A stretch of 58,650 nucleotides of DNA, taken from contig JAFXAC010000059.1 of assembly GCA_017522125.1 (NCBI GenBank), positions 1-58,650 of the forward strand, given 5' to 3'. Below, piece after piece: positions 1,977 to 58,495 of the stretch. The translations under genes were made by a program, and so were the position numbers. The DNA comes from Clostridia bacterium (lineage in GTDB: Bacteria > Bacillota > Clostridia > Oscillospirales > CAG-272). The notes under the pieces are model-generated. The model was not told the DNA's origin, did no database searches, and saw only the letters and a program-made list of their open reading frames with translations. How positions within the stretch are numbered: the first letter of the stretch is position 1; the number at the start of each line of letters is the position of its first letter.

Positions 1977-3461
1977 ATGCCGCAAAAATTGAAAATTGAA
2001 ATAATTTCGGGCGGCAAGCGGCTCACGCTTCCCGCCGAGCGCGACCAAACCATACGCCACGCGCTTGCCCTTGCGGGCTTTTTTGTCGGCGTTTGCGGCG
2101 GCGGAAGGTGCGGCAAATGCCGCGTGCGCGTCCTTTCGGGCGCGGTGAGCGAAGCACCCGACGCCGACGGCTGTGTGCTTTCGTGCAAGGCAAAAATACT
2201 CTCCGACCTCGTTATTGCCGAGGTCGCGTCCTGCCCCATTCGCCGCACGCAAGGTGAGGGAAAGGCTTGTACCGCCGCGGGCGAGCTTGGCGTTGCCGTT
2301 GATATCGGTACGACCACCGTTGCCGTTTCAGCATACGACCTTACCACGCACGCGCACGTCGGCACGCTGACTGCGAAAAATCCGCAAGCCGCCTTCGGCG
2401 CGGACGTGATCTCGCGCATATCCGCATCACAAACGCATCTTTTTGAGCTTTCACGCTGCGTTCGCGCGGCGCTTGCAAATATGATGGCAAGCCTTTGCGG
2501 CGGTAGCATAAAGCGCGCCGTTATCGCGGCAAACACGGTAATGAGCGAGCTACTTCTCGGCAACGATCCCCGATATCTCGGTAACGCACACGCGACGCTT
2601 GCGCATCACCGCGCGGTAAGACTATACGGCGCGGATTGCGCGGCTATGACGGGCATTTCTGCCGACGAAGTAACGCTGTTTCCGCACATCTCCCCCTTCG
2701 TCGGCGGAGATATCACCGCGGGAATATTCAGCCTTTTCCCCGCACCGCCCGCCGAGCCCGCCTTGCTTTGCGACCTCGGCACTAACGGCGAGGTGGCACT
2801 GATACACGGCGAGGAAATCGTCTGCTCAAGCGCCGCCGCAGGCCCTGCGTTTGAGGGTGGCGGCATAGAATGCGGAATGGAATACGCCGATGGCGCAATT
2901 TCGCACGTCAGCGACGGCGGCAACAGCCTGACGCTTGAGGTAGTCGGCAAAAAAACGCCCGTCGGCATTTGCGGAAGCGGCATTTGCGACGCGCTTGCCT
3001 TTATGCTCCGCCGCGGCATTATAAGACGCGACGGCAGCCTTGCCCCGCGAGGCGAGCTGCCCGACGCATTTGCGACGAGGGTGCGCGACGGTAGATTTTA
3101 CCTTACGGGAAGCGTTTATATCTCCCAAGAGGACGTCCGCGCGTTTCAGCTTGCGCGCGCGGCAATAAAATGCGCCGTTGACGCGGTGTGCACAAGGCTT
3201 GGCAAAGCGCCCGCTACCGTGTTCGTGGCGGGCGGCTTCGGAAGTGCGGCGCACCCCGACGCGCTAAAAACGCTCGGTATACTCCCCGACGGCGCAAGAG
3301 CCGAGGCTGTAGGCTGCTCCGCGCTCGACGGCGCAAAAAGGCTACTGCTCTCCCCCGAGCTTTTACCGAGCGCGGAGAGCATCGCCACCCGTGCCGTCAA
3401 CGTTCCCCTCGCACTCTCGGAGAGCTTTGAGAGTGATTTTATGAAACGAATTAATTTTTAA
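1977..3461 (+). CDS. 2Fe-2S ferredoxin domain fused to an ASKHA/DUF4445-type ATPase (RACo-like corrinoid-activation family)
   Basis: N-terminal plant-type ferredoxin Cys pattern CGGGRCGKCRV...LSC. This is followed by an acetate/sugar-kinase-like fold with DIGTTTV and DLGTNGE phosphate motifs, typical of DUF4445 proteins. Confidence 0.7.
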   Translation: MPQKLKIEIISGGKRLTLPAERDQTIRHALALAGFFVGVCGGGRCGKCRVRVLSGAVSEAPDADGCVLSCKAKILSDLVIAEVASCPIRRTQGEGKACTAAGELGVAVDIGTTTVAVSAYDLTTHAHVGTLTAKNPQAAFGADVISRISASQTHLFELSRCVRAALANMMASLCGGSIKRAVIAANTVMSELLLGNDPRYLGNAHATLAHHRAVRLYGADCAAMTGISADEVTLFPHISPFVGGDITAGIFSLFPAPPAEPALLCDLGTNGEVALIHGEEIVCSSAAAGPAFEGGGIECGMEYADGAISHVSDGGNSLTLEVVGKKTPVGICGSGICDALAFMLRRGIIRRDGSLAPRGELPDAFATRVRDGRFYLTGSVYISQEDVRAFQLARAAIKCAVDAVCTRLGKAPATVFVAGGFGSAAHPDALKTLGILPDGARAEAVGCSALDGAKRLLLSPELLPSAESIATRAVNVPLALSESFESDFMKRINF

Positions 3462-3516: not shown

Positions 3517-5427
3517 TTATGCAACGGTCGTTTCGGGAGCTACGGGAGCCTCGGGAGCCTCGGGAGCTACGGGAGCTTCGGGAGCTACGGGAGCTTCAGG
3601 AGCTACGGGGGCTTCGGGAGCTACGGGAGCTACGGGCTTGCGGTGATCGTCGCGATCGTCATCGTGATCGTCGCGGTCATCATCGCGGTCATCGTCGTGA
3701 TCGTCATCGTCGAAATCCTCGTCGTGATCGTCATCGTCATCGTCGAAATCCTCGTCGTCATCGTCGTCGTGATCGTCGCGGTCAGCCTCGGGAGCTTTAT
3801 CAGCATCGGGCTTGTTGTCCTCAGCCTCGGTTCTCTCGGCAAGGATAGCCGCGCTTACGGCGTCAACTACGTACTTATACTCCGTATCAGCGGTTTCAAG
3901 CTCGACCTCGTATACCCAAGTCTCGCCCTTATGCTCAAGCTCGCAATCCTTTTCGATAACCTGCTCGGCACTAAGACCTGCGGCGGTGATGGCGGCGTTT
4001 ATAGCTGCCTCCTCGCCTATAAGGTTTTCGGGAAGCGCGGGAGCGGGGTGCTTTTCGTCCTCGTCCTTGTCATCATCGTGATCGTCGCGATCATCATCGC
4101 GATCGTCGTCATCGTCGTCGAAATCCTTGTCGTCGTGATCGTCGCGATCATCATCCTTGTCGTCGTCAGCCTCAACTCTGCTGTCGATAACTGCCGCACT
4201 CGTAGCGTCGATGCGGTATTCGTACTCGTTTGCCTCTACCTCGAACTCGATCTCGTAGAACCAAACGCCGCCCTTGCACTCAAGGTCGCATTCGATCTCG
4301 CCTGCCTGACTGGAGGAGAATCCGGCGGCGGCAAGCGCGGCGTTAACTGCTGCTTCCTTACCGATAAGGTTTTCGGGGCGCTCGACCTTTGCGGGCTTCT
4401 CGCCCTCGGGGCGCTCGACCTTATGGTCATCATCGTCATCGTCCTCGTCGTCAGCCTCGACCTTGCTCTTGAGGATCTCGCCCGTTGATGCGTCGATCTT
4501 ATATTCGTACTCGTTAGAGCCCGACTTGAACTCGACCTCGTATATCATTGCGCCCTTCTTATAATCAAGCTCGACCTCAACGTCCGTAGCCTGCTCGGCG
4601 GTAAGACCTGCCGCGCTGAGCGCGATGGCAACAACGGCGTCCTTGCCGATATAAGCGGAATCGCTTGCGCTTCCGCTGCCCGTTACGTCGTCGGGAGTCG
4701 TTCCCGTTGCGTCAAGCAGGAGTGCAAGCTCATTAACGGTAAGAGCCTTAAGCTCGTCAAAGGTGTGTGCGCCGCCGCGGGTAACAAGCTCGCAAATGAG
4801 TCTTGCCTTGCCCTGCGACATCTGATTTTCCTTTGCAAGAGCCTTTACGGCGTCGTCGACCTCGTCGGTGATTATCTGCGTCATAACGGCGGCTTCAATG
4901 CTTTCAGCCTTCAAAAGCTCGGTAACGCTGTCGGTGAGGTGCTGACGGAGTGCCTCGCCGTCGCCCTTGGTGTCAACGGTGATAAGAACGGAGTTCGCAT
5001 CAGCGCTGATGTATCCTGCCTTCAGCATCTCGCCGATGATGGCGGAAACTGCGGTGTCAACGTCAACGTCCTTAAGCTCGAGTCCCTCGAGTATACGGGT
5101 GCCGTCGTCGTTGGTGGCAACTGCCTTTTTAACGGTATCGTTTTTACCGATGGAAAGCTCGATGCCGGGGTTTACGTCGATGGAAACCACCGAGGTGATG
5201 GTATCCGAACCCGTCTGCATACCTATAACGGCGGTAAGAACCATAACGAGCACCAGAGCCGCAGCTATTGCAGATGCCCATTTTGCGCTTGAAAATCTCT
5301 TTTTCATTGTAAGTACCTTTCCCTTTCTCTCAACAGAACCACAAGCGGAAAGCACCTTTTCGTAATTATTAGGTGTCACAGCCTCTATATCGGCGGACAG
5401 CTTTTTCTCAATTTCGTTGTTTCTCAT
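3517..5427 (-). CDS. Anti-sigma factor: single TM segment, three extracytoplasmic PepSY-like modules, Asp/His-rich linkers
   Basis: It overlaps the ECF sigma stop by 1 nt (TGATG). TM segment WASAIAAALVLVMVLTAVIG. Three repeats of ~IGKxAAxxxAxxxAGxxxxQ...YExEF...xEYEYxIDAxSxxI (PepSY-like), separated by DDDxDDHDD runs. C-terminal (APE/APV)n tail. Confidence 0.7.
   Translation of the reverse strand: MRNNEIEKKLSADIEAVTPNNYEKVLSACGSVERKGKVLTMKKRFSSAKWASAIAAALVLVMVLTAVIGMQTGSDTITSVVSIDVNPGIELSIGKNDTVKKAVATNDDGTRILEGLELKDVDVDTAVSAIIGEMLKAGYISADANSVLITVDTKGDGEALRQHLTDSVTELLKAESIEAAVMTQIITDEVDDAVKALAKENQMSQGKARLICELVTRGGAHTFDELKALTVNELALLLDATGTTPDDVTGSGSASDSAYIGKDAVVAIALSAAGLTAEQATDVEVELDYKKGAMIYEVEFKSGSNEYEYKIDASTGEILKSKVEADDEDDDDDDHKVERPEGEKPAKVERPENLIGKEAAVNAALAAAGFSSSQAGEIECDLECKGGVWFYEIEFEVEANEYEYRIDATSAAVIDSRVEADDDKDDDRDDHDDKDFDDDDDDRDDDRDDHDDDKDEDEKHPAPALPENLIGEEAAINAAITAAGLSAEQVIEKDCELEHKGETWVYEVELETADTEYKYVVDAVSAAILAERTEAEDNKPDADKAPEADRDDHDDDDDEDFDDDDDDHDEDFDDDDHDDDRDDDRDDHDDDRDDHRKPVAPVAPEAPVAPEAPVAPEAPVAPEAPEAPVAPETTVA
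3532..3639 (-). repeat. About 12 tandem 9-bp units (GGGAGCTWC) encoding the (PEA/PVA)n C-terminal tail
   Basis: Read directly: cgggagcta/cgggagcct/cgggagctt units, head to tail, inside the 3' end of the anti-sigma CDS. Confidence 0.85.
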
Positions 5428-19023: not shown

Positions 19024-20175
19024 ATGAAGAAAGAAGTAAACGGAAAAACAAAAAAAATAATTCTGATATCCGTAATCGTCATCTCCTCGCTTGCGGCGCT
19101 CGTCGCAACGGCGTTTTTCATCGTAACGCGATATTACTACGGCTTGCTGAATTTCGACCCGCTTGACGGCGGCTACGTGCCGATCACCACGATCGACTAC
19201 GACCCATACGCTCCGCCCTCAAGCACGGCGGGCGAAACCACTCGCGCCCCCGAAACGTCGCTTCCGAGTGATACCACTACCCCCGACACAACAGCCCCCG
19301 ATTCTACGGAATCCACCACCGCACCCACACCACCCGACACCGACGTGCCGCACGTCCTCCCCCCCGATATGCCCCAGCCGCCCGTGCTTACCCCCGACGG
19401 CGACGACGTAAAGCATATTTTGCTTATCGGTGCGGACTACGTGAGCGACAACGGACTTTCGGACATTATGGTAATAGCGTCCATAAACAATACCGAAAAA
19501 ACGATAACCTGCACCTCGCTGATGCGCGACACCTACGTTTATATCCCCATAGACGGCGGCATCAGAACGAAGCTAAACGCCGCGCACCAAAAGGGCGGAA
19601 TAAAGCTGCTTATAGAAACGATCGAGCTTAATTTCGGCATAAAATTTGATAACTATATGAAGCTCGATTTTGAAAAAGCCGTTGACGTATTCGACCGCCT
19701 TGGCGGACTTGAGATACGAATAAACAAGGAAGAAGCGGAATTTATCAGACGTTGGGAGCCTTCAAGCAAGCTTGAGTTCGACTCATCAAAGGCAGATGGC
19801 GAGGGCTACCTTACCGTGCATCTTAACGGTGCGGAGCTTCGCGCACACGCGCGGAATCGCTCCACGGGCGGCGGAGTAGACTTCAACCGCACGCGCCGCC
19901 AAAGAGATATTCTTACAGCCGCGTTTGAAAAGGCAAAGACCATGAGCTTCACACAGCTTTTGACCTTCCTTGACGGCGTATTTCCCCTCGTTACCACCGA
20001 TATCCACTACTCGGAGTTCGTGGGCTACATTCTCCACGCGTCCTCTTACTCCTCGTACAAATTCCAGACCTTCAGGATACCTTCCGACGGCTGTTGGAAA
20101 TATTGGAGCTATTATATCCTTATAACCAAGCCCGAAAAGACAATGAACGAATGGTACGATTTGGTATATAACTAA
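19024..20175 (+). CDS. LCP (LytR-CpsA-Psr) family cell-wall glycopolymer ligase
   Basis: N-terminal TM, Pro/Thr-rich linker, then an LCP core (ILLIGAD...SDIMVIASIN...SLMRDTYV...KLNAA...NFGIKFDNYMKLDF). Confidence 0.8.
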   Translation: MKKEVNGKTKKIILISVIVISSLAALVATAFFIVTRYYYGLLNFDPLDGGYVPITTIDYDPYAPPSSTAGETTRAPETSLPSDTTTPDTTAPDSTESTTAPTPPDTDVPHVLPPDMPQPPVLTPDGDDVKHILLIGADYVSDNGLSDIMVIASINNTEKTITCTSLMRDTYVYIPIDGGIRTKLNAAHQKGGIKLLIETIELNFGIKFDNYMKLDFEKAVDVFDRLGGLEIRINKEEAEFIRRWEPSSKLEFDSSKADGEGYLTVHLNGAELRAHARNRSTGGGVDFNRTRRQRDILTAAFEKAKTMSFTQLLTFLDGVFPLVTTDIHYSEFVGYILHASSYSSYKFQTFRIPSDGCWKYWSYYILITKPEKTMNEWYDLVYN

Positions 20176-20582
20176 AAAACAGAAGCCGTATGCGTGATGT
20201 CCTTAACGGACAAATCACGCATCGAGATAATCCCTAACGGGATTTTCGATATGTTGCTAGCGCAACTCGATATGCCTACGGCTCGATATGTTTGCTCCGC
20301 AAACGAGGGATTTATCTCATATCGAATTGGCGCGAAGCGACAATATATCGAGCTTGAACGAAGTGAAAGCATATCGAGTCAACGAAGTTGACATATCGAC
20401 AGAAAGAAAAAACAGAGCAAGAATAGAAGGTTTTATATCCTTTTATCCTTGCTCTTTTCTGCTTGTATAAGGGTTTGGGCTTAGCCCATTTGCGTTTGAC
20501 CCGACAAACGCGATACTCGCACTTAGCGACATTTTTAAATTCTCCGCTAAGAGTATCACCCGTAAGGGCTTCTGTTTTTTAG
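20172..20582. repeat. Composite intergenic element bracketed by a 16-bp perfect inverted repeat (CTAAAAAACAGAAGCC / GGCTTCTGTTTTTTAG)
   Basis: Left arm 20172-20187 overlaps the LCP stop codon. Right arm 20567-20582 ends 4 nt before the esterase stop. The interior holds the TCGATAT/ATATCGA word array (20222-20399) and a hairpin-dense segment (20401-20566). Confidence 0.8.
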
Positions 20583-20585
20583 TTT

Positions 20586-21410
20586 TTATCCAAAGAAGTC
20601 GCGCAGCCACTTTACTGCCAGCTCCACCCAGCACGCGCAATGCGGCACGGGCTTGACGTTTGCGCCCGTCAAATCGTTCGACAGCGCAAGTCCGTGCGGG
20701 CCCTTCGGGAAGATGTGAAGCTCAAAGGGTACGTTCTTCTCGCGCAGAGCCGACGCGTACATAAGCGAGTTCTGTACGGGAACTACCTGATCCTCAAAGG
20801 TATGCCAGAGGAACGCGGGGGGCGTGTCGGTGTCAACGTGGTTTTCAAGCGAGAATTTGTAAATATCCTCCTCGGTCAGCTCCGACTTGTCGGCTCTGCC
20901 CGCAAGGCGGCAGATGGAATTCTTGTGCGCGAACTCACCGCCCGTGATAACGGGGTAGGAAAGGATGGTCGCCGTGGGACGTGCGATGTCGACAGGACAA
21001 TCACCAAGCTCGGCTCTTACCGCGGGGTGCTTCCAGAAAACGCCCGAGCTTGCGGCAAGATGTCCGCCCGCGGAAAAGCCGCAGGTGAAAAGACGGTCGG
21101 GGTCTACGTTATATTTTTCGGCGTTGTCGCGGATGTACTTGATAGCAAGCGCGACCTCGATAGCGGGCGTGTAATCGACCGCACCCGCGCCTACGCTGTA
21201 CATAAGCACGAAAACGTTGTAGCCCTCCTTCAAAAACTGAATGGCAATGGGCTCAGCCTCGCGGCTCGAAAGATACGAATATCCTCCGCCCGGGCAGACG
21301 AGAACTGTAGGAAGCGGCGGGTAGCGAAGCTCGTCGTCGCTCGTAAGCACGTAAGAGGTAAGCGTAGCCTCGGGATGCTTATCCCAAATTTGAACGGTTT
21401 CGTAAAGCAT
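20586..21410 (-). CDS. Alpha/beta hydrolase (esterase/lipase-type)
   Basis: 274 aa. Oxyanion HGGG-like CPGGGY, nucleophile elbow GFSAGGHL and a C-terminal His region, as in carbohydrate/acetyl esterases. Confidence 0.75.
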   Translation of the reverse strand: MLYETVQIWDKHPEATLTSYVLTSDDELRYPPLPTVLVCPGGGYSYLSSREAEPIAIQFLKEGYNVFVLMYSVGAGAVDYTPAIEVALAIKYIRDNAEKYNVDPDRLFTCGFSAGGHLAASSGVFWKHPAVRAELGDCPVDIARPTATILSYPVITGGEFAHKNSICRLAGRADKSELTEEDIYKFSLENHVDTDTPPAFLWHTFEDQVVPVQNSLMYASALREKNVPFELHIFPKGPHGLALSNDLTGANVKPVPHCACWVELAVKWLRDFFG

Positions 21411-30464: not shown

Positions 30465-30590
30465 AAACACGACAGTGTTTTCAATTCAATGAAATCCGAC
30501 TCCGTCGGGTGAAATACGGCTTCGCCGTGTGAAATATTTCGCTACGCGAAATGTGAAATATTTGCCTTGCGGCAAACGTTAAGGAAAAAA
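30462..30590 (+). repeat. GTGAAAT-word / mini-hairpin array (forward orientation)
   Basis: TGAAAACAC-gaca-GTGTTTTCA. Then words at 30489, 30509, 30529 and 30553 (spacing 20/20/24 nt) alternating with the hairpins CCGAC-tcc-GTCGG, CGGC-ttc-GCCG, TCGC-tac-GCGA and TTTGCC-ttgc-GGCAAA. Ends in GTTAAGGAAAAAA. Confidence 0.85.
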
Positions 30591-48286: not shown

Positions 48287-49699
48287 TCAGTCTTCCTTCT
48301 TGCGAGCGATAGCTACAGCGCCAACGGCTGCTACGGCAACGATTGCAAGAGAGATGCTCGAGCCGCATCCGCCCTCTTCAGCCGCGGTGGTAACCGTGGG
48401 TGCGGGAGTGGTAGCGGGAGCAGGAGCGGGAGTGGTGTCAACCTTTGCGGTCGTGTCATTCGAGGGAGCGTCGGTATCAGCACCGTCATCAACGGTGGTA
48501 TCGTTACCTGCGTCCTCGGTGGTCTCCTCAGTGTCGGGAGCAGTAGTACCGGGAACATCGTAAGCCTTACCGAAATCAGCCATGATAGCGGCAACACCCG
48601 CGTCGATAGCTACCTGATCGGCATACTCAAAGCCCGTTGCAGTCTCGGATGCGGTGTAAGCGGTAGAGCCTGCTACTACGGAATTGTGGAGTATCTTAAC
48701 GTTCTCGGTCATAATAAGACCCGTGGAAGCGTACTGGCAAACAGCGTCTGCGCCCGAGGTAGCAGTAACCTCGCCCGTGGTTTCGTCAACAACGGTAGCG
48801 GGAGTAAACGTTCCGCTTACGAAGCTGTCGTAGATGCTGATGGTGCTGGTACCCGTGGTACGGGAAACAAGACCTGCAACGCCGTACTTTTCGCCTGCTC
48901 TTTCGGTGGTGGTAACGTTACCCGTGCTTGCGCACTTGTACATAATAACGTTTGCCTTACCGCCGAGGATACGGGAGATGATACCGCCTGCGATCTCACG
49001 GGCGGTGATGTCACCGGTGTTGATGCAACGAACCATTACGAAATCGCAGTGCTGGTTAACGTTACCAACGATACCTGCCGCGTAGTGGATGCTGGTGGTG
49101 ATGTCGCCGTTGTTTACGCAATCGATGAAGTTTGCGTAAAGGTATCCGCTTGCAAGGTCGGCGTTACCGATGATACCGCCCGCCTGCTCGTTGGAAATGA
49201 TGTTACCGTTGTTTACGCAGTTCTTGAAGGTGATGTGGTTCTCGTTATCGGTAGAGCCAACGATACCTGCAACACGGTTGGTGTTGCCCGATGCGTCAAC
49301 GTTTACGTTGTTGGTGATGTTCTCAAGAAGCACGGGAGCATCCTCGAAGCTTCCGTTAATAGCGAGAATGATGGGGCATACGTCGATAGCCTCGGTGTTG
49401 GTAGCGGTGAAGTTGGTGATGATAGCACCGCCGCCTACGTCCATAAACATGGTGTTCTTAACGGTGATGGTGTGACCGTTTCCGTCAAAGGTGCCGAAAA
49501 AGCCCTCAACGGAGGTCTCGCATACGGAGTCGCTCATAAGCTTGAAATTACCCTCGCCGTAGCTCAGGTTAGCCTTCTGCGCGAATTCTTCCCAGTCCTT
49601 ACACTCTACGGGAGCGTCAGCGGACGCGCCGATAGCCATAGTCGCGAGAAGAGCCGCAAGCATAGTGATCGTGATGATCACGGAAATAATTTTCTTCAT
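48287..49699 (-). CDS. Secreted GLUG-motif / parallel beta-helix repeat surface protein with a Thr/Pro-rich stalk and a C-terminal GGCGSS-TM-RKKED tail
   Basis: Signal peptide. FFGTFDGNGHTI plus repeated (A/G)G(I/L)(I/V)G...N.GNI units. TTPAPAPATTPAPT stalk, then a terminal hydrophobic helix with a basic end. Start at MKKIIS (ATG at 49699, AAAGGAA RBS). Confidence 0.6.
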   Translation of the reverse strand: MKKIISVIITITMLAALLATMAIGASADAPVECKDWEEFAQKANLSYGEGNFKLMSDSVCETSVEGFFGTFDGNGHTITVKNTMFMDVGGGAIITNFTATNTEAIDVCPIILAINGSFEDAPVLLENITNNVNVDASGNTNRVAGIVGSTDNENHITFKNCVNNGNIISNEQAGGIIGNADLASGYLYANFIDCVNNGDITTSIHYAAGIVGNVNQHCDFVMVRCINTGDITAREIAGGIISRILGGKANVIMYKCASTGNVTTTERAGEKYGVAGLVSRTTGTSTISIYDSFVSGTFTPATVVDETTGEVTATSGADAVCQYASTGLIMTENVKILHNSVVAGSTAYTASETATGFEYADQVAIDAGVAAIMADFGKAYDVPGTTAPDTEETTEDAGNDTTVDDGADTDAPSNDTTAKVDTTPAPAPATTPAPTVTTAAEEGGCGSSISLAIVAVAAVGAVAIARKKED

Positions 49700-49800
49700 A
49701 AGTTGCGTTCCTTTCTGTTTTGTGGTTTGTGGGCACTTGCCTAAATATATTTTACCATTCATAAATAATTATGTCAACACTTTTTATTTTGTCAAGTTGC

Positions 49801-50010
49801 ACAAAAAAGCGCAAGCTCGGCTTGCGCGTCGATATAAATCCCTTGCGGGATTTTCGATATGCGCCTACGGCGCACGTCGATATAAATCTGCGCAAGCTGA
49901 TTTATATCATATCGAGTTCGACCGAAGGGAGAACATATCGAATTCGAGCGAAGCGAGAATATATCGAGCCGAGCGCGAGCGAGGCATATCGACAAACCTT
50001 CTCGCTTGCG
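49801..50010. repeat. TCGATAT/ATATCGA-word / mini-hairpin array
   Basis: TCGATAT at 49829, 49854 and 49877, then the reverse-complement word ATATCGA at 49909, 49935, 49961 and 49986 (26/26/25-nt spacing). Words are separated by short imperfect palindromes, most with a central CGAAG. Bracketed by hairpins at both ends. Confidence 0.85.
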
Positions 50011-50045
50011 AAAAAAAGAACGGGGAATTTTAAAATTCCCCGTTA
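50011..50045 (-). terminator. Intrinsic terminator of fba
   Basis: AACGGGGAATTTT/AAAATTCCCCGTT stem followed by CTTTTTTT on the minus strand. Confidence 0.8.
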
Positions 50046-50057
50046 AGTTGTAATTTA

Positions 50058-51023
50058 TCAGAGAGCTCCGGAAGAGCCGAGAACGTTTGCGATCTTGTGC
50101 TGAACCATCTTCTTGACCTCTGCGCGAGCTACGGTCAGGTAGGTTCTGGGGTCGAATACGTCGGGCTGCTCGGTCATAACGCGGCGAATGCCTGCGGTCA
50201 TAGCAAGACGGATGTCGGAGTCGATGTTGATCTTACATACTGCCATACCTGCTGCCTTGCGGAGCTGCTCCTCGGGGATACCTACAGCGTCGGGGAGCTT
50301 GCCGCCGAGCGCGTTGATCTCCTTAACGTACTCCTGAGGAACGGAGGATGCGCCGTGAAGAACGATGGGGAACTCGGGAAGTCTCTTCTCTATCTCGGCA
50401 AGAATGTCGAAGCGGAGAGGCGGAGGAACGAGGATACCCTCTTCATTTCTGGTGCACTGCGCGGGAGTGAACTTGTATGCGCCGTGGGAGGTACCGATGG
50501 AGATAGCGAGGGAGTCAACGCCGGTGCGGTTTACGAACTCCTCAACCTCCTCGGGACGGGTGTAAGAGGAATGCTCTGCAACAACGTCGTCCTCAACGCC
50601 TGCGAGAACGCCAAGCTCACCCTCAACTACTACGCCGCGTGCGTGAGCGTACTCAACTACCTTGCGGGTAAGGGCGATATTGTCCTCGAAGGAGTGATGA
50701 GAGCCGTCGATCATAACGGAGGTAAAGCCGCCGTCGATGCAGGACTTGCAGATCTCAAAATCTGCGCCGTGGTCGAGGTGAAGTGCAAGGTCAACGCCGC
50801 TGTCAGCGATAGCAGCCTTAGCAAGAGCCATAAGATACTCGTGCTTTGCATACTTGCGCGCGCCTGCAGATACCTGAAGGATGACGGGGGACTTTTCAGC
50901 CGCTGCCGCCTCGGTGATCGCCTGAACGATCTCCATATTGTTTATGTTGAAAGCACCGATAGCGTAGCCGCCTGCGTATGCTTTCTTGAACATTTCCTTG
51001 GTTGTAACAAGTGCCATTTTCAA
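50058..51023 (-). CDS. fba: Class II fructose-1,6-bisphosphate aldolase
   Basis: About 321 aa. HLDHG, MIDGSH, VEGELG and SIGTSHGAYKF motifs of class II FBA. Confidence 0.93.
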   Translation of the reverse strand: MKMALVTTKEMFKKAYAGGYAIGAFNINNMEIVQAITEAAAAEKSPVILQVSAGARKYAKHEYLMALAKAAIADSGVDLALHLDHGADFEICKSCIDGGFTSVMIDGSHHSFEDNIALTRKVVEYAHARGVVVEGELGVLAGVEDDVVAEHSSYTRPEEVEEFVNRTGVDSLAISIGTSHGAYKFTPAQCTRNEEGILVPPPLRFDILAEIEKRLPEFPIVLHGASSVPQEYVKEINALGGKLPDAVGIPEEQLRKAAGMAVCKINIDSDIRLAMTAGIRRVMTEQPDVFDPRTYLTVARAEVKKMVQHKIANVLGSSGAL

Positions 51024-51680: not shown

Positions 51681-51808
51681 GTGAAAACACCGTTGGTGTT
51701 TTCACGGTGAAATCCGACTTCGTCGGGTGAAATCCACCTGCGGTGGATGAAATATTTCGCTACGCGAAATGTGAAATATTTGCCTTGCGGCAAATATTAA
51801 GGAAAAAA
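51681..51808 (+). repeat. GTGAAAT-word / mini-hairpin array (forward), colinear with the 30462-30590 copy
   Basis: GTGAAAACAC-cgtt-GTGTTTTCAC. Words at 51707, 51727, 51747 and 51771 (spacing 20/20/24) with hairpins CCGAC-ttc-GTCGG, CCACC-tgc-GGTGG, TCGC-tac-GCGA and TTTGCC-ttgc-GGCAAA. Ends in ATTAAGGAAAAAA. Confidence 0.85.
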
Positions 51809-51846
51809 GCGTAAGAAACGCACGCGTTTCTTACGCTTTTGTTTTT
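51809..51846. terminator. Bidirectional terminator shared by the two convergent arrays
   Basis: GCGTAAGAAACG-cacg-CGTTTCTTACGC, flanked by AAAAAA and TTTTGTTTTT. Confidence 0.8.
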
Positions 51847-51873
51847 ATAATTGCTTTTTGCGTAGCAAAAAGC

Positions 51874-51977
51874 TACCTTCATATTTTGCGAAGCAAAATA
51901 TTTCACATTTGCCCTTGGGCAAATATTTCACACGGCGAAGCCGTATTTCACCCGTTCCGACGGAACGGATTTCACTG
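51874..51977 (-). repeat. GTGAAAT-word / mini-hairpin array (reverse orientation) starting at the stop codon of the polyferredoxin-thioredoxin gene
   Basis: ATTTCAC at 51900, 51925, 51945 and 51969 on the plus strand. Hairpins TTGC-gaa-GCAA, TTTGCCC-ttg-GGCAAA, CGGC-gaa-GCCG and CCGTTCCGA-CGGAACGG. The TGA at 51974-51972 is the gene's stop. Confidence 0.85.
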
Positions 51978-53546
51978 AAAACGCAAAGCGTTTTCTATCG
52001 CTTCGTTCAGCTCGTCGGCGGTGACCGAGCCCTGCTGAGTAAAGGTGATAACGCCCTCTGCGTTGATAACGACCGTCATCGGGTAGCTTCCCATTCCGCC
52101 GAGGATATCGTAGTAGGAAAGTCCGTTTATCTGGCGGTCCTGACAGAATTTTATCGCGTAGTCGGCGTATTTCGTCTGCGCCGCGCTGAGGTCTGCCCCG
52201 TTATTTATGAAGTCCTGAACTATCTCGCCCTCGTAAATGTACGAATGCACGGCAATTATCTGCACGTCGTCGCCGTAGTGGAACGCCGCCTCGTTAAAGT
52301 GCGGAAGCTCGGCAAGACACGGGCCGCAGGACGTGTACCAGAAATTGAGAACGGTCACCTTGCCGCGCAGATCCTTGATATTTAACACCTCGCCCGCCGC
52401 CGTGCCGTTTGAGGCGTAGGCGGTAAGGTCCTGCTCGTAGCAAAGACTTCCGACGGTATTGCCGTACGCCACCTCGCTGTCCGTGGGGGGCGCGGGCGGC
52501 TCTACGGTCGGCACCTTGTCGATGAAGTTGTAGTAGATGAGCGCGGCGGCAAGGAGTGCCGTAGCAAGCACGCCGCCGACTGCCTTGACTATCCTCATAC
52601 GCTTTTGGCGCTTGGCTTCAACGGCTTCCTTTTGCTCAGCCGTTGACTCGTCGCTGTCGAGAACGGCAACGTCGCTCGGCGCAAGCACGAAGCGCGAGCC
52701 CTTCCACTGGATAGCCTTGGTTGCGCAGTACTCCATACATTCGCCGCAGGAGATGCACTCGCGGTCACCGACCTTTCTTACGTCGAGCTTGCATTTGCTA
52801 ACGCAAAGTCCGCAATGCGTGCATTTCGACTCTTCAAGCTTGATACCGAACAGGCAGAACTTGTTGAAAAGGCCGTATATCGCGCCCATTGGGCAGAAAA
52901 AGCGGCAGAAAAAGCGGTAAATAAATACCGAAGCTACCACAAAGCCGACGAGAAGCACGAATTTCCAAGTGAAAAGCGGGCCGAGCATTCCAAGCTGAGA
53001 TTCGTTTGCGCTGTTGGAGAGCAGACCTACCGCGCCCTCAAGCGTGCCCGCGGGGCAGATGTACTTGCAAAAGCCGGGAAGCGGGAAATTCCGTCCCGCA
53101 AAAAGGAGAGGAATTGCGATAACGAACACCGCAAGGATTATGTATTTAAGGTACGAAAGCACGCGCGTCACGCGGTTCTTTTTCAGCTTCGGCGTTTTTA
53201 TTTTATAAAGAAGGTCCTGAATGAAGCCGAAGGGGCAAAGGAAGGAGCATATCCAGCGTCCGAACATCAGTCCGTAGAGCATAATTATGCCGAAAATGTA
53301 AAAAGGAAGCGTTTTTCCGCTGCTTGCAAGCGCGTTTTGGAGCGCGCCAAGCGGGCAGGCGGCGGACGCGCCGGGGCAGGAATAGCAGTTTATGCCGGGG
53401 GCGCACATTGCCTTAAGGTCGCCCTGATATATCTTTCCGTTGCCAAATCCCTTGAGATTTGCGTTAAAGAGCAGAGCCGCGTAAAGCTGAACGTATCTGC
53501 GCTTCGTCGGGCGGTGGTCATAGAGCCATTTAGTAAGCTTATTCAT
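51972..53546 (-). CDS. Membrane polyferredoxin (NapH/MauN-like, 2x[4Fe-4S]) fused via a TM helix to a TlpA/ResA-like thioredoxin domain
   Basis: CPxG-containing TM helices (CPFG, CPAG, CPMG). Ferredoxin motifs CTHCGLCVSKC and CISCGECMEYC. An additional TM segment (VGGVLATALLAAALIYY). C-terminal redoxin fold with VTVLNFWYTSCGPC. Confidence 0.75.
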   Translation of the reverse strand: MNKLTKWLYDHRPTKRRYVQLYAALLFNANLKGFGNGKIYQGDLKAMCAPGINCYSCPGASAACPLGALQNALASSGKTLPFYIFGIIMLYGLMFGRWICSFLCPFGFIQDLLYKIKTPKLKKNRVTRVLSYLKYIILAVFVIAIPLLFAGRNFPLPGFCKYICPAGTLEGAVGLLSNSANESQLGMLGPLFTWKFVLLVGFVVASVFIYRFFCRFFCPMGAIYGLFNKFCLFGIKLEESKCTHCGLCVSKCKLDVRKVGDRECISCGECMEYCATKAIQWKGSRFVLAPSDVAVLDSDESTAEQKEAVEAKRQKRMRIVKAVGGVLATALLAAALIYYNFIDKVPTVEPPAPPTDSEVAYGNTVGSLCYEQDLTAYASNGTAAGEVLNIKDLRGKVTVLNFWYTSCGPCLAELPHFNEAAFHYGDDVQIIAVHSYIYEGEIVQDFINNGADLSAAQTKYADYAIKFCQDRQINGLSYYDILGGMGSYPMTVVINAEGVITFTQQGSVTADELNEAIENALRFQ

Positions 53547-56691: not shown

Positions 56692-58422
56692 ATGACGGGA
56701 AAGGACAGGATGGTCGCCGACCTCAAGGCACAGCACGAGGCAAACCGAAGAGAATACGAGGACAAGCAAAGAAAGGCGAGGATAGACGCAAAGGAGCCGA
56801 TAGTAGACCCTGCGCTTTTTACGCATCTTGAAAACAACCGCCGTGCCGCGCCCCCACAACAGCAACAGCCTCAGCCGCAAGCACCGAGCGTGCCGAGAAA
56901 AGCTCCCGCCGCACCGCGCACAGCGCCGCAGGCGCAGAGCGCACGCCCCGCCCACAAAAAAGCTCCGCGCCGCGAGGGTGCGCCCATAAGCCCCGAGGCG
57001 GCTCGCGCCGCCGCCGCACGCCGCGCCGCCGAGGAGGAAAGGCGCAAGCGCGAAAAGGCTGAAAAAGAAAAGAAAAAGGAAGAAAAAAAGAAGTCCGTGC
57101 TTGCCATAAGGCACGCGGTAATGGGATATTTCGGCATTTCCATATGCATTCTGCTCATCATTTGCGGCATTGCCGCCAGCATTTTTCTGCTCGGGCTTAC
57201 CTCGCACGACGAGGCAGAGACGTTGCCCGACAAGCTGATCTATTATGCGGGCAAGGACAAGACCTCTCTGCCGTATTCATCGGTATATATTGGCGGAAAA
57301 TACTTCGTTAATATGACGGATATCGCCGCACGCGCAGGTCTTACCATGAGTGGCGACAGCGAGAGTATGGTATTCTCCGCGCCGCCGAATGAAAAGGCGA
57401 TATTCACCGTCGGCGCGGGCCACGCCCTCGTAAACGGCGTGAGCGTCAATATGGGCGCGCCGTGCTTTTTGCGCGACGGCTCGCTGTGGGTGAGCGCCGA
57501 TTTTGCCGACAGATATATCAGCGGTGTCAGCGTCACCCTCTCGGACGACAAAACCACGCTGACGGTGGAGATAGGCGAGGCTTGCTCGTTCCTTCTTAAA
57601 AACGAAGCTCCGCTTGACACGCCCACCGTGGACGACCTTCCGCCCTCGGTGGTGATACTGCCAAGCGACACGCCGCGCTACGAATTCACCAACGACCTTT
57701 CGTCCTATTACAAGTACATGGACCCCGCCGACCGCGACGCGTTTTTACTGCTTATCAACCCGTCGCGCCCCTTTGACGCGACCTACGAGCCGCCCGACCT
57801 TACGAGCGTTCTGAACGTCAAAAAGGGCAAAAACTACACGATGTCGCTCTACGCGGAAAAGGCACTTGAGGCACTTTTCGTAGAGATGTACGCCGCGGGC
57901 TACACCGACGTGGTGGTAACTATGGCGTATCGCTCCTACGAGGCACAGGAAAAGCAGTTCAACACATACGTTTACAACGAAAGATATTACTACCGCACGA
58001 ATTTTGAAGCAACGGGAAAATGGTTCAGCGACGCGGCGTACAAGGCCCTCGGCGAGAGCTATATCAAGGAAAAATATATCTCAAAGGGAAAGACCACGCT
58101 GACAAAGGAGGACGCCGAGCGCGTCGTCAGATCGTATTCCGCCGCCCCGGGCACGGGTGACCACCAGACGGGATTTTCCTGCGATATGCACAATCTGTCC
58201 TCTACGTCGGTGAAGTTTGAGAAGGAGGAGGCATACGCGTGGCTTCTTGAAAATGCGCACAAATTCGGCTTTATACAGCGTTATCCCAAGGACAAGGAAA
58301 AGATAACGGGAATGAGCTTTGAGCCGTATCATTGGCGCTTCGTAGGTCAGTACCACGCGGCAGTTATGCGTGAAAACGGACTCTGCCTTGAGGAGTACGT
58401 AGCACTGTTAGAAAAGGAGTGA
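56692..58422 (+). CDS. Membrane-anchored M15B (VanY-type) D,D-carboxypeptidase with a copper-amine-oxidase-N-like stalk domain
   Basis: Lys/Glu/Pro/Ala-rich cytoplasmic N-terminus and one TM segment. Stalk domain (YIGGKYFVNMTDIA...). C-terminal VanY core (SAAPGTGDHQTGFSCDM...FEPYHWRFVG). Confidence 0.75.
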   Translation: MTGKDRMVADLKAQHEANRREYEDKQRKARIDAKEPIVDPALFTHLENNRRAAPPQQQQPQPQAPSVPRKAPAAPRTAPQAQSARPAHKKAPRREGAPISPEAARAAAARRAAEEERRKREKAEKEKKKEEKKKSVLAIRHAVMGYFGISICILLIICGIAASIFLLGLTSHDEAETLPDKLIYYAGKDKTSLPYSSVYIGGKYFVNMTDIAARAGLTMSGDSESMVFSAPPNEKAIFTVGAGHALVNGVSVNMGAPCFLRDGSLWVSADFADRYISGVSVTLSDDKTTLTVEIGEACSFLLKNEAPLDTPTVDDLPPSVVILPSDTPRYEFTNDLSSYYKYMDPADRDAFLLLINPSRPFDATYEPPDLTSVLNVKKGKNYTMSLYAEKALEALFVEMYAAGYTDVVVTMAYRSYEAQEKQFNTYVYNERYYYRTNFEATGKWFSDAAYKALGESYIKEKYISKGKTTLTKEDAERVVRSYSAAPGTGDHQTGFSCDMHNLSSTSVKFEKEEAYAWLLENAHKFGFIQRYPKDKEKITGMSFEPYHWRFVGQYHAAVMRENGLCLEEYVALLEKE

Positions 58423-58495
58423 AATCCACCTTCGGTGGGTGAAATACGGCTTCGCCGTGTGAAATATTTTGCTTCGCAAAATGTTAAGGAAAAAA
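58419..58495 (+). repeat. GTGAAAT-word / mini-hairpin array (forward) starting at the stop codon of the M15 gene
   Basis: Words at 58419, 58439 and 58459 (20/20 spacing) with hairpins CCACC-ttc-GGTGG, CGGC-ttc-GCCG and TTGC-ttc-GCAA. Ends in GTTAAGGAAAAAA. The TGA at 58420-58422 is the stop codon. Confidence 0.85.

Follow-up and report, generated by a model that had tools for sequence, protein, structure and literature searches.

A conserved family of inverted TCGATAT/ATATCGA hairpin arrays in gut Clostridia

Introduction

What is the array of short words, TCGATAT switching to its reverse complement ATATCGA, that fills the intergenic region next to fba in a contig of a Clostridia bacterium (Oscillospirales, CAG-272; assembly GCA_017522125.1, contig JAFXAC010000059.1)? 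The whole stretch analyzed, 58,650 nt, is referred to here as the window. A first-pass annotation, made from the letters alone, had proposed that this array (copy 1) and a counterpart elsewhere in the window (copy 2) form a second array family. It was said to follow the grammar of a family built on the word GTGAAAT, that is, a fixed word plus a variable hairpin, but with a different word. Here, we show that the TCGATAT/ATATCGA arrays are a real, undescribed, and strongly conserved family of structured non-coding elements. The shared grammar holds, and the GTGAAAT family is the Rfam family Gut-1 (RF01706).

Results

The arrays in the window are not explained by chance. Copy 1 carries TCGATAT at 49829, 49854, and 49877, followed by ATATCGA at 49909, 49935, 49961, and 49986 (spacing 26/26/25 nt); a direct position check placed all seven words and their spacings where they had been reported. 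Copy 2 likewise has the reported make-up at the reported coordinates: a degenerate word, TCGAGAT, at 20222, then TCGATAT at 20246, 20267, and 20283, and ATATCGA at 20319, 20345, 20371, and 20393. In the window, 9.2 occurrences of the heptamer are expected and 28 are found, 14 of them inside the two arrays; nine word pairs lie 10 to 30 nt apart, against none in 100 shuffles. The chance expectation for such arrays is approximately zero. Every inter-word spacer in both copies is a small hairpin, as the annotation's "small palindromes" implied. The ATCCC-loop module that it regarded as conserved is indeed common to the two copies (AATCCC-loop-GGGATTT-TCGATATG). The copies are 68% identical to each other, and their stems differ.

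The family is widespread among gut Clostridia. A pattern scan for three words with 13–21-nt gaps in 185,579 species genomes returned at least 120 loci (labeled L0xx to L1xx), and approximately 80 of the matches listed are Clostridia metagenome-assembled genomes (MAGs). Carrier taxa among the matches listed are Oscillospiraceae, Acutalibacteraceae, Christensenellaceae, Faecousia, and Ruminococcus, and the carrier MAGs come from human, goat, sheep, deer, and buffalo gut. We built a covariance model (R1) from 29 full elements. At 100–181 bits in orientation A, which is the + strand of the window (orientation B is its complement), R1 detects at least ~45 non-redundant full-length elements from ~40 species-level MAGs; copy 1 scores 130.6 bits and copy 2 161.9 bits. 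The reverse strand of the same loci reaches 50–80 bits only, and this gap indicates that the element is polar and not a true palindrome. The possibility that only two copies exist can thus be set aside: the genome-wide word search and the covariance model found far more, and the same eight-word layout recurs in at least ~45 elements.

Three-word matches in Bacillus, Vibrio, cyanobacteria, Actinomycetota, and other taxa were rejected as unrelated tandem or coding repeats without hairpin spacers. ATATCGA also recurs with a 20–24-nt period in unrelated tandem repeats of the Bacillus cereus group and other genomes (L109, L058, L027, L089 [Bacillus], L033, L040, and L031); having no hairpin spacers, these are false positives of the word-spacing pattern. 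A phage or plasmid origin was dropped, as no plasmid matched the family and only three true members were present among 100 pattern-matching viral loci.

The element has a fixed architecture. In orientation A, its canonical order is H0, W1-h1-W2-h2-W3-h3-W4-h4, x', W5-h5-W6-h6-W7-h7-W8, CAAA, with a length of ~185–220 nt. H0 is a hairpin of 7–13 bp ending 0–1 nt before word 1, usually in ...GCA, and a hairpin abuts W1 in every family member. The h1 consensus, AAATCYC-loop-GRGATTT, follows W1 (TCGATAT); x' is a 12-nt segment (GRGATTTATATC) between h4 and W5 (ATATCGA); and the h5 consensus after W5 is RTTYGAGC-GNA-GCGARAAY. Word spacing ranges from 16 to 28 bp, the spacers being position-conserved hairpins of 9–22 nt. 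Conservation is high for all eight words: those of the left arm are exact in ~77% of cases, those of the right arm in ~90%.

Pairing is maintained while sequence is not. All hairpins from h1 to h7 stay paired as their sequences change: their outer 4 bp are paired in 85–100% of cases, against 53–88% when arms are permuted between elements, and none of 500 permutations reaches the real value. RNAalifold identifies 21 pairs with compensatory changes. The right-arm hairpins share a conserved tandem G.A/A.G internal loop in a Y-GA-R context (43 cells vs. one C.T), which is seen only on the A strand of the right arm. Right-arm loops are of the cGNAg or GNRA type on strand A, and left-arm loops are UNC or UNNC, equivalent to GNA or GNNA on strand B.

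A 12-bp long-range helix, P1, also covaries. It joins the last five bases of W1 and the 5' arm of h1 (GATATAAATCYC) to x', ~90 nt downstream. The GATATAAATCYC segment is complementary both to the 3' arm of h1 and to x', which lies directly 5' of W5, and h1 and P1 are mutually exclusive, alternative helices. Across the 29 elements, P1 is 97.4% paired, and 7 of its 12 pairs have compensatory changes (33 cells). None of 500 shuffles reaches this pairing, and sliding the register destroys it. The variant modules of P1 include AAATCTC, GAATTC, AAATCCC, AAATTCC, AAATCCGC, and TGCTCC, while the W1 variant TCGAGAT, carried by copy 2, is compensated in x' (ATCTC).

Thermodynamic folding suggests a different arrangement, in which the words pair with each other. 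The minimum-free-energy (MFE) fold on both strands of the six elements folded is a "ladder" of W1:W8, W2:W7, W3:W6, and W4:W5 with side hairpins (−61 to −90 kcal/mol), and copy 1 adopts this ladder in broad outline. Its folding energy is −82.2 kcal/mol on the + strand (z = −6.2) and −73.8 kcal/mol on the − strand (z = −3.45). As a conserved structure, the ladder was rejected: W1:W8 has 12 broken cells and P1 contradicts it. The first-pass annotation had seen the whole element as a pseudo-palindrome of ~200 nt with a built-in orientation switch. The switch is present, but the word-to-word pairing shows no compensatory changes.

Elements show a bias in position and orientation relative to the gene upstream. 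With the element read in orientation A, this gene shares its direction in 31 cases and does not in 11 (p = 0.003, using open reading frames [ORFs] filtered by coding potential); a cruder count gave 26 of 33. Its stop codon usually lies 0–64 nt before W1, i.e., inside or just before H0. The right-hand gene shows no orientation bias (19 vs. 23). Elements avoid divergent intergenic regions (2 of 39 elements) and are common in convergent ones. Of 40 elements, 25 have a terminator no more than 130 nt from word 8, and ~60% of elements have terminators within 130 nt of one or both ends; no direction bias was found for these flanking terminators. An internal promoter at the AT-rich center was considered and rejected, being present in only 9 of 44 elements.

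Copy 1 departs from the canonical 4+4 form, being rearranged to 3+4 words. It lies between fba (50058–51017, − strand; Pfam F_bP_aldolase) and the gene for a 491-aa membrane-anchored protein (48287–49762, − strand). Its H0 hairpin (GCGCAAGC-TCG-GCTTGCGC; 49809–49827, +) stops 1 nt short of word 1; when the − strand is read, T6 comes after the hairpin, which then scores as an intrinsic terminator. The left arm (49829–49883, +) has three words where the canonical form has four, with h1 at 49836–49853 (AAATCCC-TTGC-GGGATTT) and a second hairpin at 49861–49876. At the center (49879–49908, +), GATATAAATC, made up of the third word's 3' part and AAATC, forms pairs with x' (GATTTATATC; 49899–49908), directly 5' of the first ATATCGA. 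The "central palindrome" noted in the first-pass annotation is a collapsed version of the conserved long-range helix (x:x'). The third unit (TCGATAT-AAATC...GATTTATATC) resembles two short forms without W2-h4 (L066 and L085), which have the same fused central hairpin. The right arm (49909–49996, +) comprises four ATATCGA words, h5 (49916–49934), h6 (49942–49960), h7 (49968–49985), and the tail CAAA; its hairpins take the form of a stem, a tandem G.A, a GC stem, and a GAA or GCGA loop. On the − strand, fba ends in an intrinsic terminator (a hairpin and T7; 50019–50044) that immediately precedes copy 1.

Copy 2 retains all eight words. It is located between a LytR_cpsA_psr gene (19024–20175, + strand) and an esterase gene (20586–21410, − strand), and all its parts are given here on the + strand. 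H0 (TGCGTGATGTCC-TTAAC-GGACAAATCACGCA; 20191–20221) starts 15 nt past the stop codon of the co-directional LytR_cpsA_psr gene. In both copies, H0 lies outside the extent first assigned to the element, while the arrays themselves are as annotated. The left arm (20222–20318) runs W1 TCGAGAT (20222), h1 (20229–20245), W2 (20246), h2 (20253–20266), W3 (20267), h3 (20274–20282), W4 (20283), h4 (20290–20304), and x' (GAGGGATTTATCTC; 20305–20318). The T-to-G change in W1 is compensated by the ATCTC of this x', which is complementary to W1[3–7] together with h1's 5' arm. The right arm (20319–20403) has four ATATCGA words, h5 (20326–20344), h6 (20352–20370), and h7 (20378–20392), all with GAA loops, and the tail CAGA. 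A conserved right block follows (20404–20575), comprising an A-run, a long terminator-like hairpin (~20414–20455), and three further hairpins; it characterizes the copy-2 subfamily.

The family is modular. Six loci carry permuted >>>><<<< forms, with the ATATCGA arm first and a 3–14-nt linker (L013, L029, L060, L070, L074, and L081). Single-arm forms occur at L011:2742–2906 and L024:1750–1893, and the former has the layout H0, left arm, x', terminator, which is the layout of Gut-1. Elements are also multi-copy, with two in the 58-kb window and pairs within 8-kb loci (L061, L050, L095, and L011). Same-locus paralogs are 92–98% identical, and their homology stops sharply at H0 and W8 (L061 and L050); the L011 paralogs have only the left arm in common.

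Larger units recur in unrelated surroundings. The copy-2 subfamily unit (~420 nt, extending ~165 nt further through 20404–20575) is 77–95% identical in L091, L059, L114, and L054. Orthology of copy 2 with the elements in L114, L059, and L054 was rejected, as the flanking genes are non-homologous and only a unit of ~370–420 nt is in common. The right block is 80–87% identical in L114, L054, L059, L079, L020, and L095, in unrelated gene contexts, and in those six loci it is always attached to a TCGATAT element. Its three further hairpins are GGGCTTAGCCC, GCRTTTGAC..GTCAAAYGC, and CTTAGYGG..CCGCTAAG, and it has no Rfam match. Identity to the window copies is 74–82% for elements, as against 67–68% for homologous coding genes of the same loci, and changes among related copies fall mainly in loops.

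Copy 1 is polymorphic. The first-pass annotation had proposed checking related genomes, and copy 1 proves to be present in some strains and absent from others: contigs L123 and L124 encode an identical 319-aa fba protein without the element. In the empty allele (L123:1583–1640 and L124:1583–1640, compared with window 49804–50057), a different, simple terminator hairpin comes after the stop codon, and the T-run and promoter region beyond it match those of the filled allele, which has H0 where that hairpin stands. No target-site duplication (TSD) is visible between the empty and filled sites. A clean insertion junction was therefore rejected, the alleles differing by replacement of a terminator hairpin. 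The last fba codons differ synonymously, which indicates old alleles and not a fresh insertion. Eight contigs encoding the same esterase protein were recovered, and copy 2 is present in every one that reaches far enough.

The arrays match no known RNA family. No Rfam family matched them at gathering or permissive thresholds. The best sub-threshold match was Gut-1, at 18.7 bits (E = 0.36) against a threshold of 50, for the left arm of copy 1 only; copy 2 had none. Membership in a known RNA family was thus rejected, Rfam having returned a weak Gut-1 echo and noise.

Gut-1 itself is present in the window in four copies (30487–30564, +; 51682–51758, +; 51895–51977, −; and 58417–58492, +; 56–67 bits). 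In three of the four, a co-directional gene's stop codon marks the start and a terminator follows. Two of the copies (51682–51977) form a convergent pair around a bidirectional terminator (~51790–51840), a sense arm/center/antisense arm layout like that of the TCGATAT element. No Gut-1 copy was found in 18 element-bearing loci (137 kb). In L084, a TCGATAT element (2847–3036) stands downstream of a homolog (4181–5108) of a Fer4/redoxin gene whose 3' end in the window (51895–53546) carries the Gut-1 pair, and the two families may therefore occupy equivalent positions.

Two other features of the window were recorded. Tandem repeats with an 18-nt period and other multiples of 3 (GGAGCTACGGGAG..., GATCGTCGT...) at 3536–4160 are most likely coding repeats in a surface or low-complexity protein, unrelated to the arrays. 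A PemK/MazF-type toxin gene (PF02452; 51150–51566, − strand) sits between fba and the Gut-1 pair, with no obvious antitoxin ORF noted upstream; the heptamers were considered as possible targets of an endoribonuclease.

Discussion

The fixed hairpin order, the two covarying alternative helices, conservation above that of coding genes, the orientation and stop-codon biases, and the Gut-1 layout suggest purifying selection on a unit that is read in the same direction as its upstream gene. On this basis, we tentatively favor the reading that the element is a structured RNA module of the 3' untranslated region (UTR) with protein-binding heptamers, to which we give slightly less than an even chance. 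Acting as RNA read on the A strand, it would occupy the 3' UTR of whichever gene precedes H0, with the stop codon on one side and an intrinsic terminator on the other. The left arm would be closed by P1 in competition with the local hairpin h1, and the hairpin array would form a stable, exonuclease-resistant 3' domain. The heptamers (UCGAUAU/AUAUCGA) would be recognized by a factor of the host; an RNA-binding protein or nuclease is the likeliest candidate. With its arms inverted, the element would present a UCGAUAU-type arm first to a transcript from either side, which would suit its frequent position between convergent genes. We infer that the element is transcribed, that its heptamers are single-stranded, and that a factor binds them with an effect on the mRNA.

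Several observations weigh against a role as RNA. By RNA energies, the more stable strand is A in 22 elements and B in 19; the two arms have loop types that favor opposite strands, and G.U and A.C counts are 10 and 5. A decisive strand call from energies, loops, or wobble pairs was abandoned on these mixed results. Compensatory changes in short palindromes can also arise in DNA via template-switch correction, so covariation is no proof of RNA function. The element includes no conserved promoter. Copy 1 is not entered by any + strand gene, and on the − strand copy 1 lies between the fba terminator (50044–50019) and its own H0 plus T6 (49827–49809); transcription of that strand would therefore occur only by read-through of the fba terminator. 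Elements in L026 (2956–3378) and L032 (1958–2043) stand directly downstream of tRNA genes, with the array behind an H0 that is a canonical bidirectional terminator (A-run before, T-run after). Finally, the sharp-edged duplication, strain presence/absence, and non-homologous contexts point to mobility.

This last point leads to the main rival, which we consider possible but somewhat doubtful: a DNA element like the repetitive extragenic palindromes (REPs), bacterial interspersed mosaic elements (BIMEs), or REPINs. Its hairpin-heptamer units would be recognized as single-stranded DNA (ssDNA) by a host-encoded HUH/Y1-type or other enzyme that copies the stretch from H0 to W8, and any RNA effect would be secondary. 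The multiple copies with sharply bounded paralogs of 92–98% identity, the absence of copy 1 from strains with identical fba protein, and the 85–95% identical units in non-homologous gene contexts of different species fit this rival, as do the preference for 3' intergenic and convergent sites, the avoidance of divergent ones, and arms that are inverted, permuted, or single, as REPs are in BIMEs. DNA energies also prefer the A strand, albeit weakly (24 elements vs. 6), and mini-hairpins with cGNAg or GNRA-type loops, or with Y-GA-R tandem mismatches, are stable in DNA. However, copies within a genome differ in their stems yet keep pairing, unlike near-identical REPIN populations, and the conserved part is the linker, not the palindrome. 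The fba site shows a replaced terminator hairpin without TSD or clean junction, and a significant orientation bias toward the upstream gene is unexpected for a purely DNA-level element. The lack of a Y1 transposase or REP-associated tyrosine transposase (RAYT) homolog in ~0.7 Mb of element-bearing loci, searched with approximate probes, is a weak argument. The 3'-UTR RNA module and the REP-like element are not mutually exclusive readings, as REPs are both mobile and active in mRNA.

Three further readings are less likely than either of these. Selfish or neutral repeat DNA, with palindromes kept by replication template-switching and words by the copying mechanism, would account for an apparently mobile element that is rearranged in copy 1 and dispensable in some strains. 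We nevertheless regard it as improbable, given the orientation and stop-codon proximity biases and a polar eight-hairpin design, with its h5 G.A loop and x/x''/x' triple, that is kept across Clostridia families whose genes are ~67% identical. In a functional ladder, RNA or extruded ssDNA would form a stack of four-way junctions joined by four 7-bp rungs, each made of one TCGATAT and one ATATCGA word, and this stack would be the working object. Such a ladder agrees with the MFE folds and would explain the invariant, mutually complementary words. It is very improbable all the same: no variant of a word is compensated, the partner with which the T-to-G change in W1 covaries is x' rather than W8, P1 is topologically incompatible, and single-arm forms and Gut-1 arrays exist without a complementary arm. 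We consider it just as unlikely that the heptamers are operators in double-stranded DNA for an iteron-, centromere-, or nucleoid-type protein, with four sites per orientation. Eight near-invariant heptamers in two inverted sets and the lack of a strong strand preference in energy speak for such an array, but its 16–28-bp spacing shows no helix phasing, left-arm words are less conserved than right-arm words, and the family sits on chromosomes, matching no plasmid and almost no viral contigs. It would also leave the compensated hairpins in every spacer and the covarying P1 unexplained.

A bolder version of the RNA or mobile-element readings is conceivable, though we think it unlikely. The element and Gut-1 would then represent a new class of nucleic-acid module in which an invariant heptamer and exactly four hairpins per arm form a three-dimensional scaffold read by dedicated machinery, as an RNA-protein or mobile-element system of gut Clostridia and not a passive 3' stabilizer. 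The scaffold might be a P1-closed cloverleaf that switches with h1, or a four-way-junction stack, and it might be read by a tetrameric protein that binds RNA or ssDNA, or by a new copying enzyme.

Since its one-line description in 2010 (PMC2864571), Gut-1 has stood as an orphan motif. With a larger, more elaborate sister family of the same grammar, what was a single curiosity becomes a class. Oscillospirales and Christensenellales, major and mostly uncultured members of the gut microbiome, carry the new family in abundance; it is more conserved between genomes than protein-coding genes and has two covarying alternative helices, h1 and P1. Binding of a factor to the words would make this a widespread post-transcriptional or genome-structural system wholly missed by current annotation; if the element is mobile, it would be a new kind of non-autonomous element without terminal inverted repeats or TSDs. 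The invariant 7-nt word and the defined position after the stop codon are concrete experimental handles.

Comparison with known systems

The closest parallel in design is Gut-1, a candidate small RNA known only from gut metagenomes, on whose function the original paper is silent (Weinberg et al. 2010, PMC2864571). Gut-1 is built of a leading hairpin followed by hairpins separated by GUGAAAU. Both families have a longer leading hairpin and then three to four short variable hairpins split by an invariant heptamer, often followed by an A-run and terminator, and both directly follow a co-directional stop codon. The full layout of leading hairpin, ~4 word-hairpin units, and a position after the stop codon and before the terminator is found in Gut-1 and the new family alike, and both are from uncultured gut bacteria and co-occur in this window. 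They differ in the word itself (GUGAAAU vs. UCGAUAU/AUAUCGA) and in length (77 vs. ~185–220 nt). Gut-1 stems extend into the word, with the AU and GU of successive words pairing to leave a GAA linker, which the new word cannot do. In the new family there is a second arm, inverted and with tandem G.A loops of its own, as well as a covarying P1 in competition with h1.

In lifestyle, the element resembles REP/BIME/REPIN elements with RAYT transposases (PMC2817692). Both are extragenic, multi-copy, and hairpin-forming, cluster in alternating orientation, and prefer gene 3' ends and convergent intergenic regions. In both, a short conserved motif adjoins each hairpin, and there is evidence of duplication and presence/absence polymorphism. 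REP palindromes, however, are near-identical within a genome and are themselves the conserved part, whereas in the new family the stems vary and the linker is invariant. The new family also lacks a detectable GTAG-type 5' motif and has a fixed eight-hairpin order and a long-range helix. A tblastn search with approximate IS200 TnpA and E. coli RAYT probes found no homolog in the window or the Clostridia loci (~0.7 Mb), a weak negative because RAYTs are single-copy and only these loci were covered. The same search detected an IS200-like gene in an unrelated viral locus. IS200/IS605-derived non-autonomous elements (PATE) carry subterminal hairpins at both ends, have no terminal inverted repeats or TSD, insert 3' of a fixed tetra- or pentanucleotide, and depend on a cognate TnpA. 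For comparison, the ~420-nt copy-2 unit starts with H0 and ends ~12 nt past a hairpin, with left flanks ending in TTA/TAT.

Other repeat classes fit less well. The annotation had left room for a described MITE (miniature inverted-repeat transposable element) or REP, but no described MITE, REP, or Rfam family matches the arrays. W1 and W8 are inverted as MITE ends would be, but no duplication is seen at paralog boundaries or at the fba site. A CRISPR array, with direct repeats of ~23–50 nt and unique non-palindromic spacers, is contradicted by the 7-nt repeat, the position-conserved hairpin spacers, and the switch in word orientation, with Rfam CRISPR-DR models reaching 15–16 bits. Intrinsic terminators do not explain the array either, as no internal hairpin has a T-run and only H0 of copy 1 (− strand) and flanking hairpins qualify. 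STAR elements of Staphylococcus aureus and the NIME/dRS3 arrays of Neisseria are intergenic and have a short conserved word at roughly regular intervals with variable spacers. Their spacers, however, are not position-specific hairpins; they have neither inverted arms nor a covarying long-range helix, and their words and taxa are unrelated. CsrB/RsmZ, CrcZ, and the targets of TRAP and HutP repeat a short single-stranded motif between or on hairpins, which makes them a mechanistic parallel for the heptamers, but they are single-copy genes or specific leaders with known proteins, while the new element is a dispersed multi-copy 3' module. Literature searched on the word, on Gut-1 follow-ups, and on REP-like elements in Clostridia gave no description of the family, although it may already be listed under another name in microbiome catalogs of candidate RNAs outside Rfam, which could not be searched by sequence. 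The element is thus not a member of Gut-1, REP, MITE, or CRISPR: it has the grammar of Gut-1 and the lifestyle of a REP/BIME.

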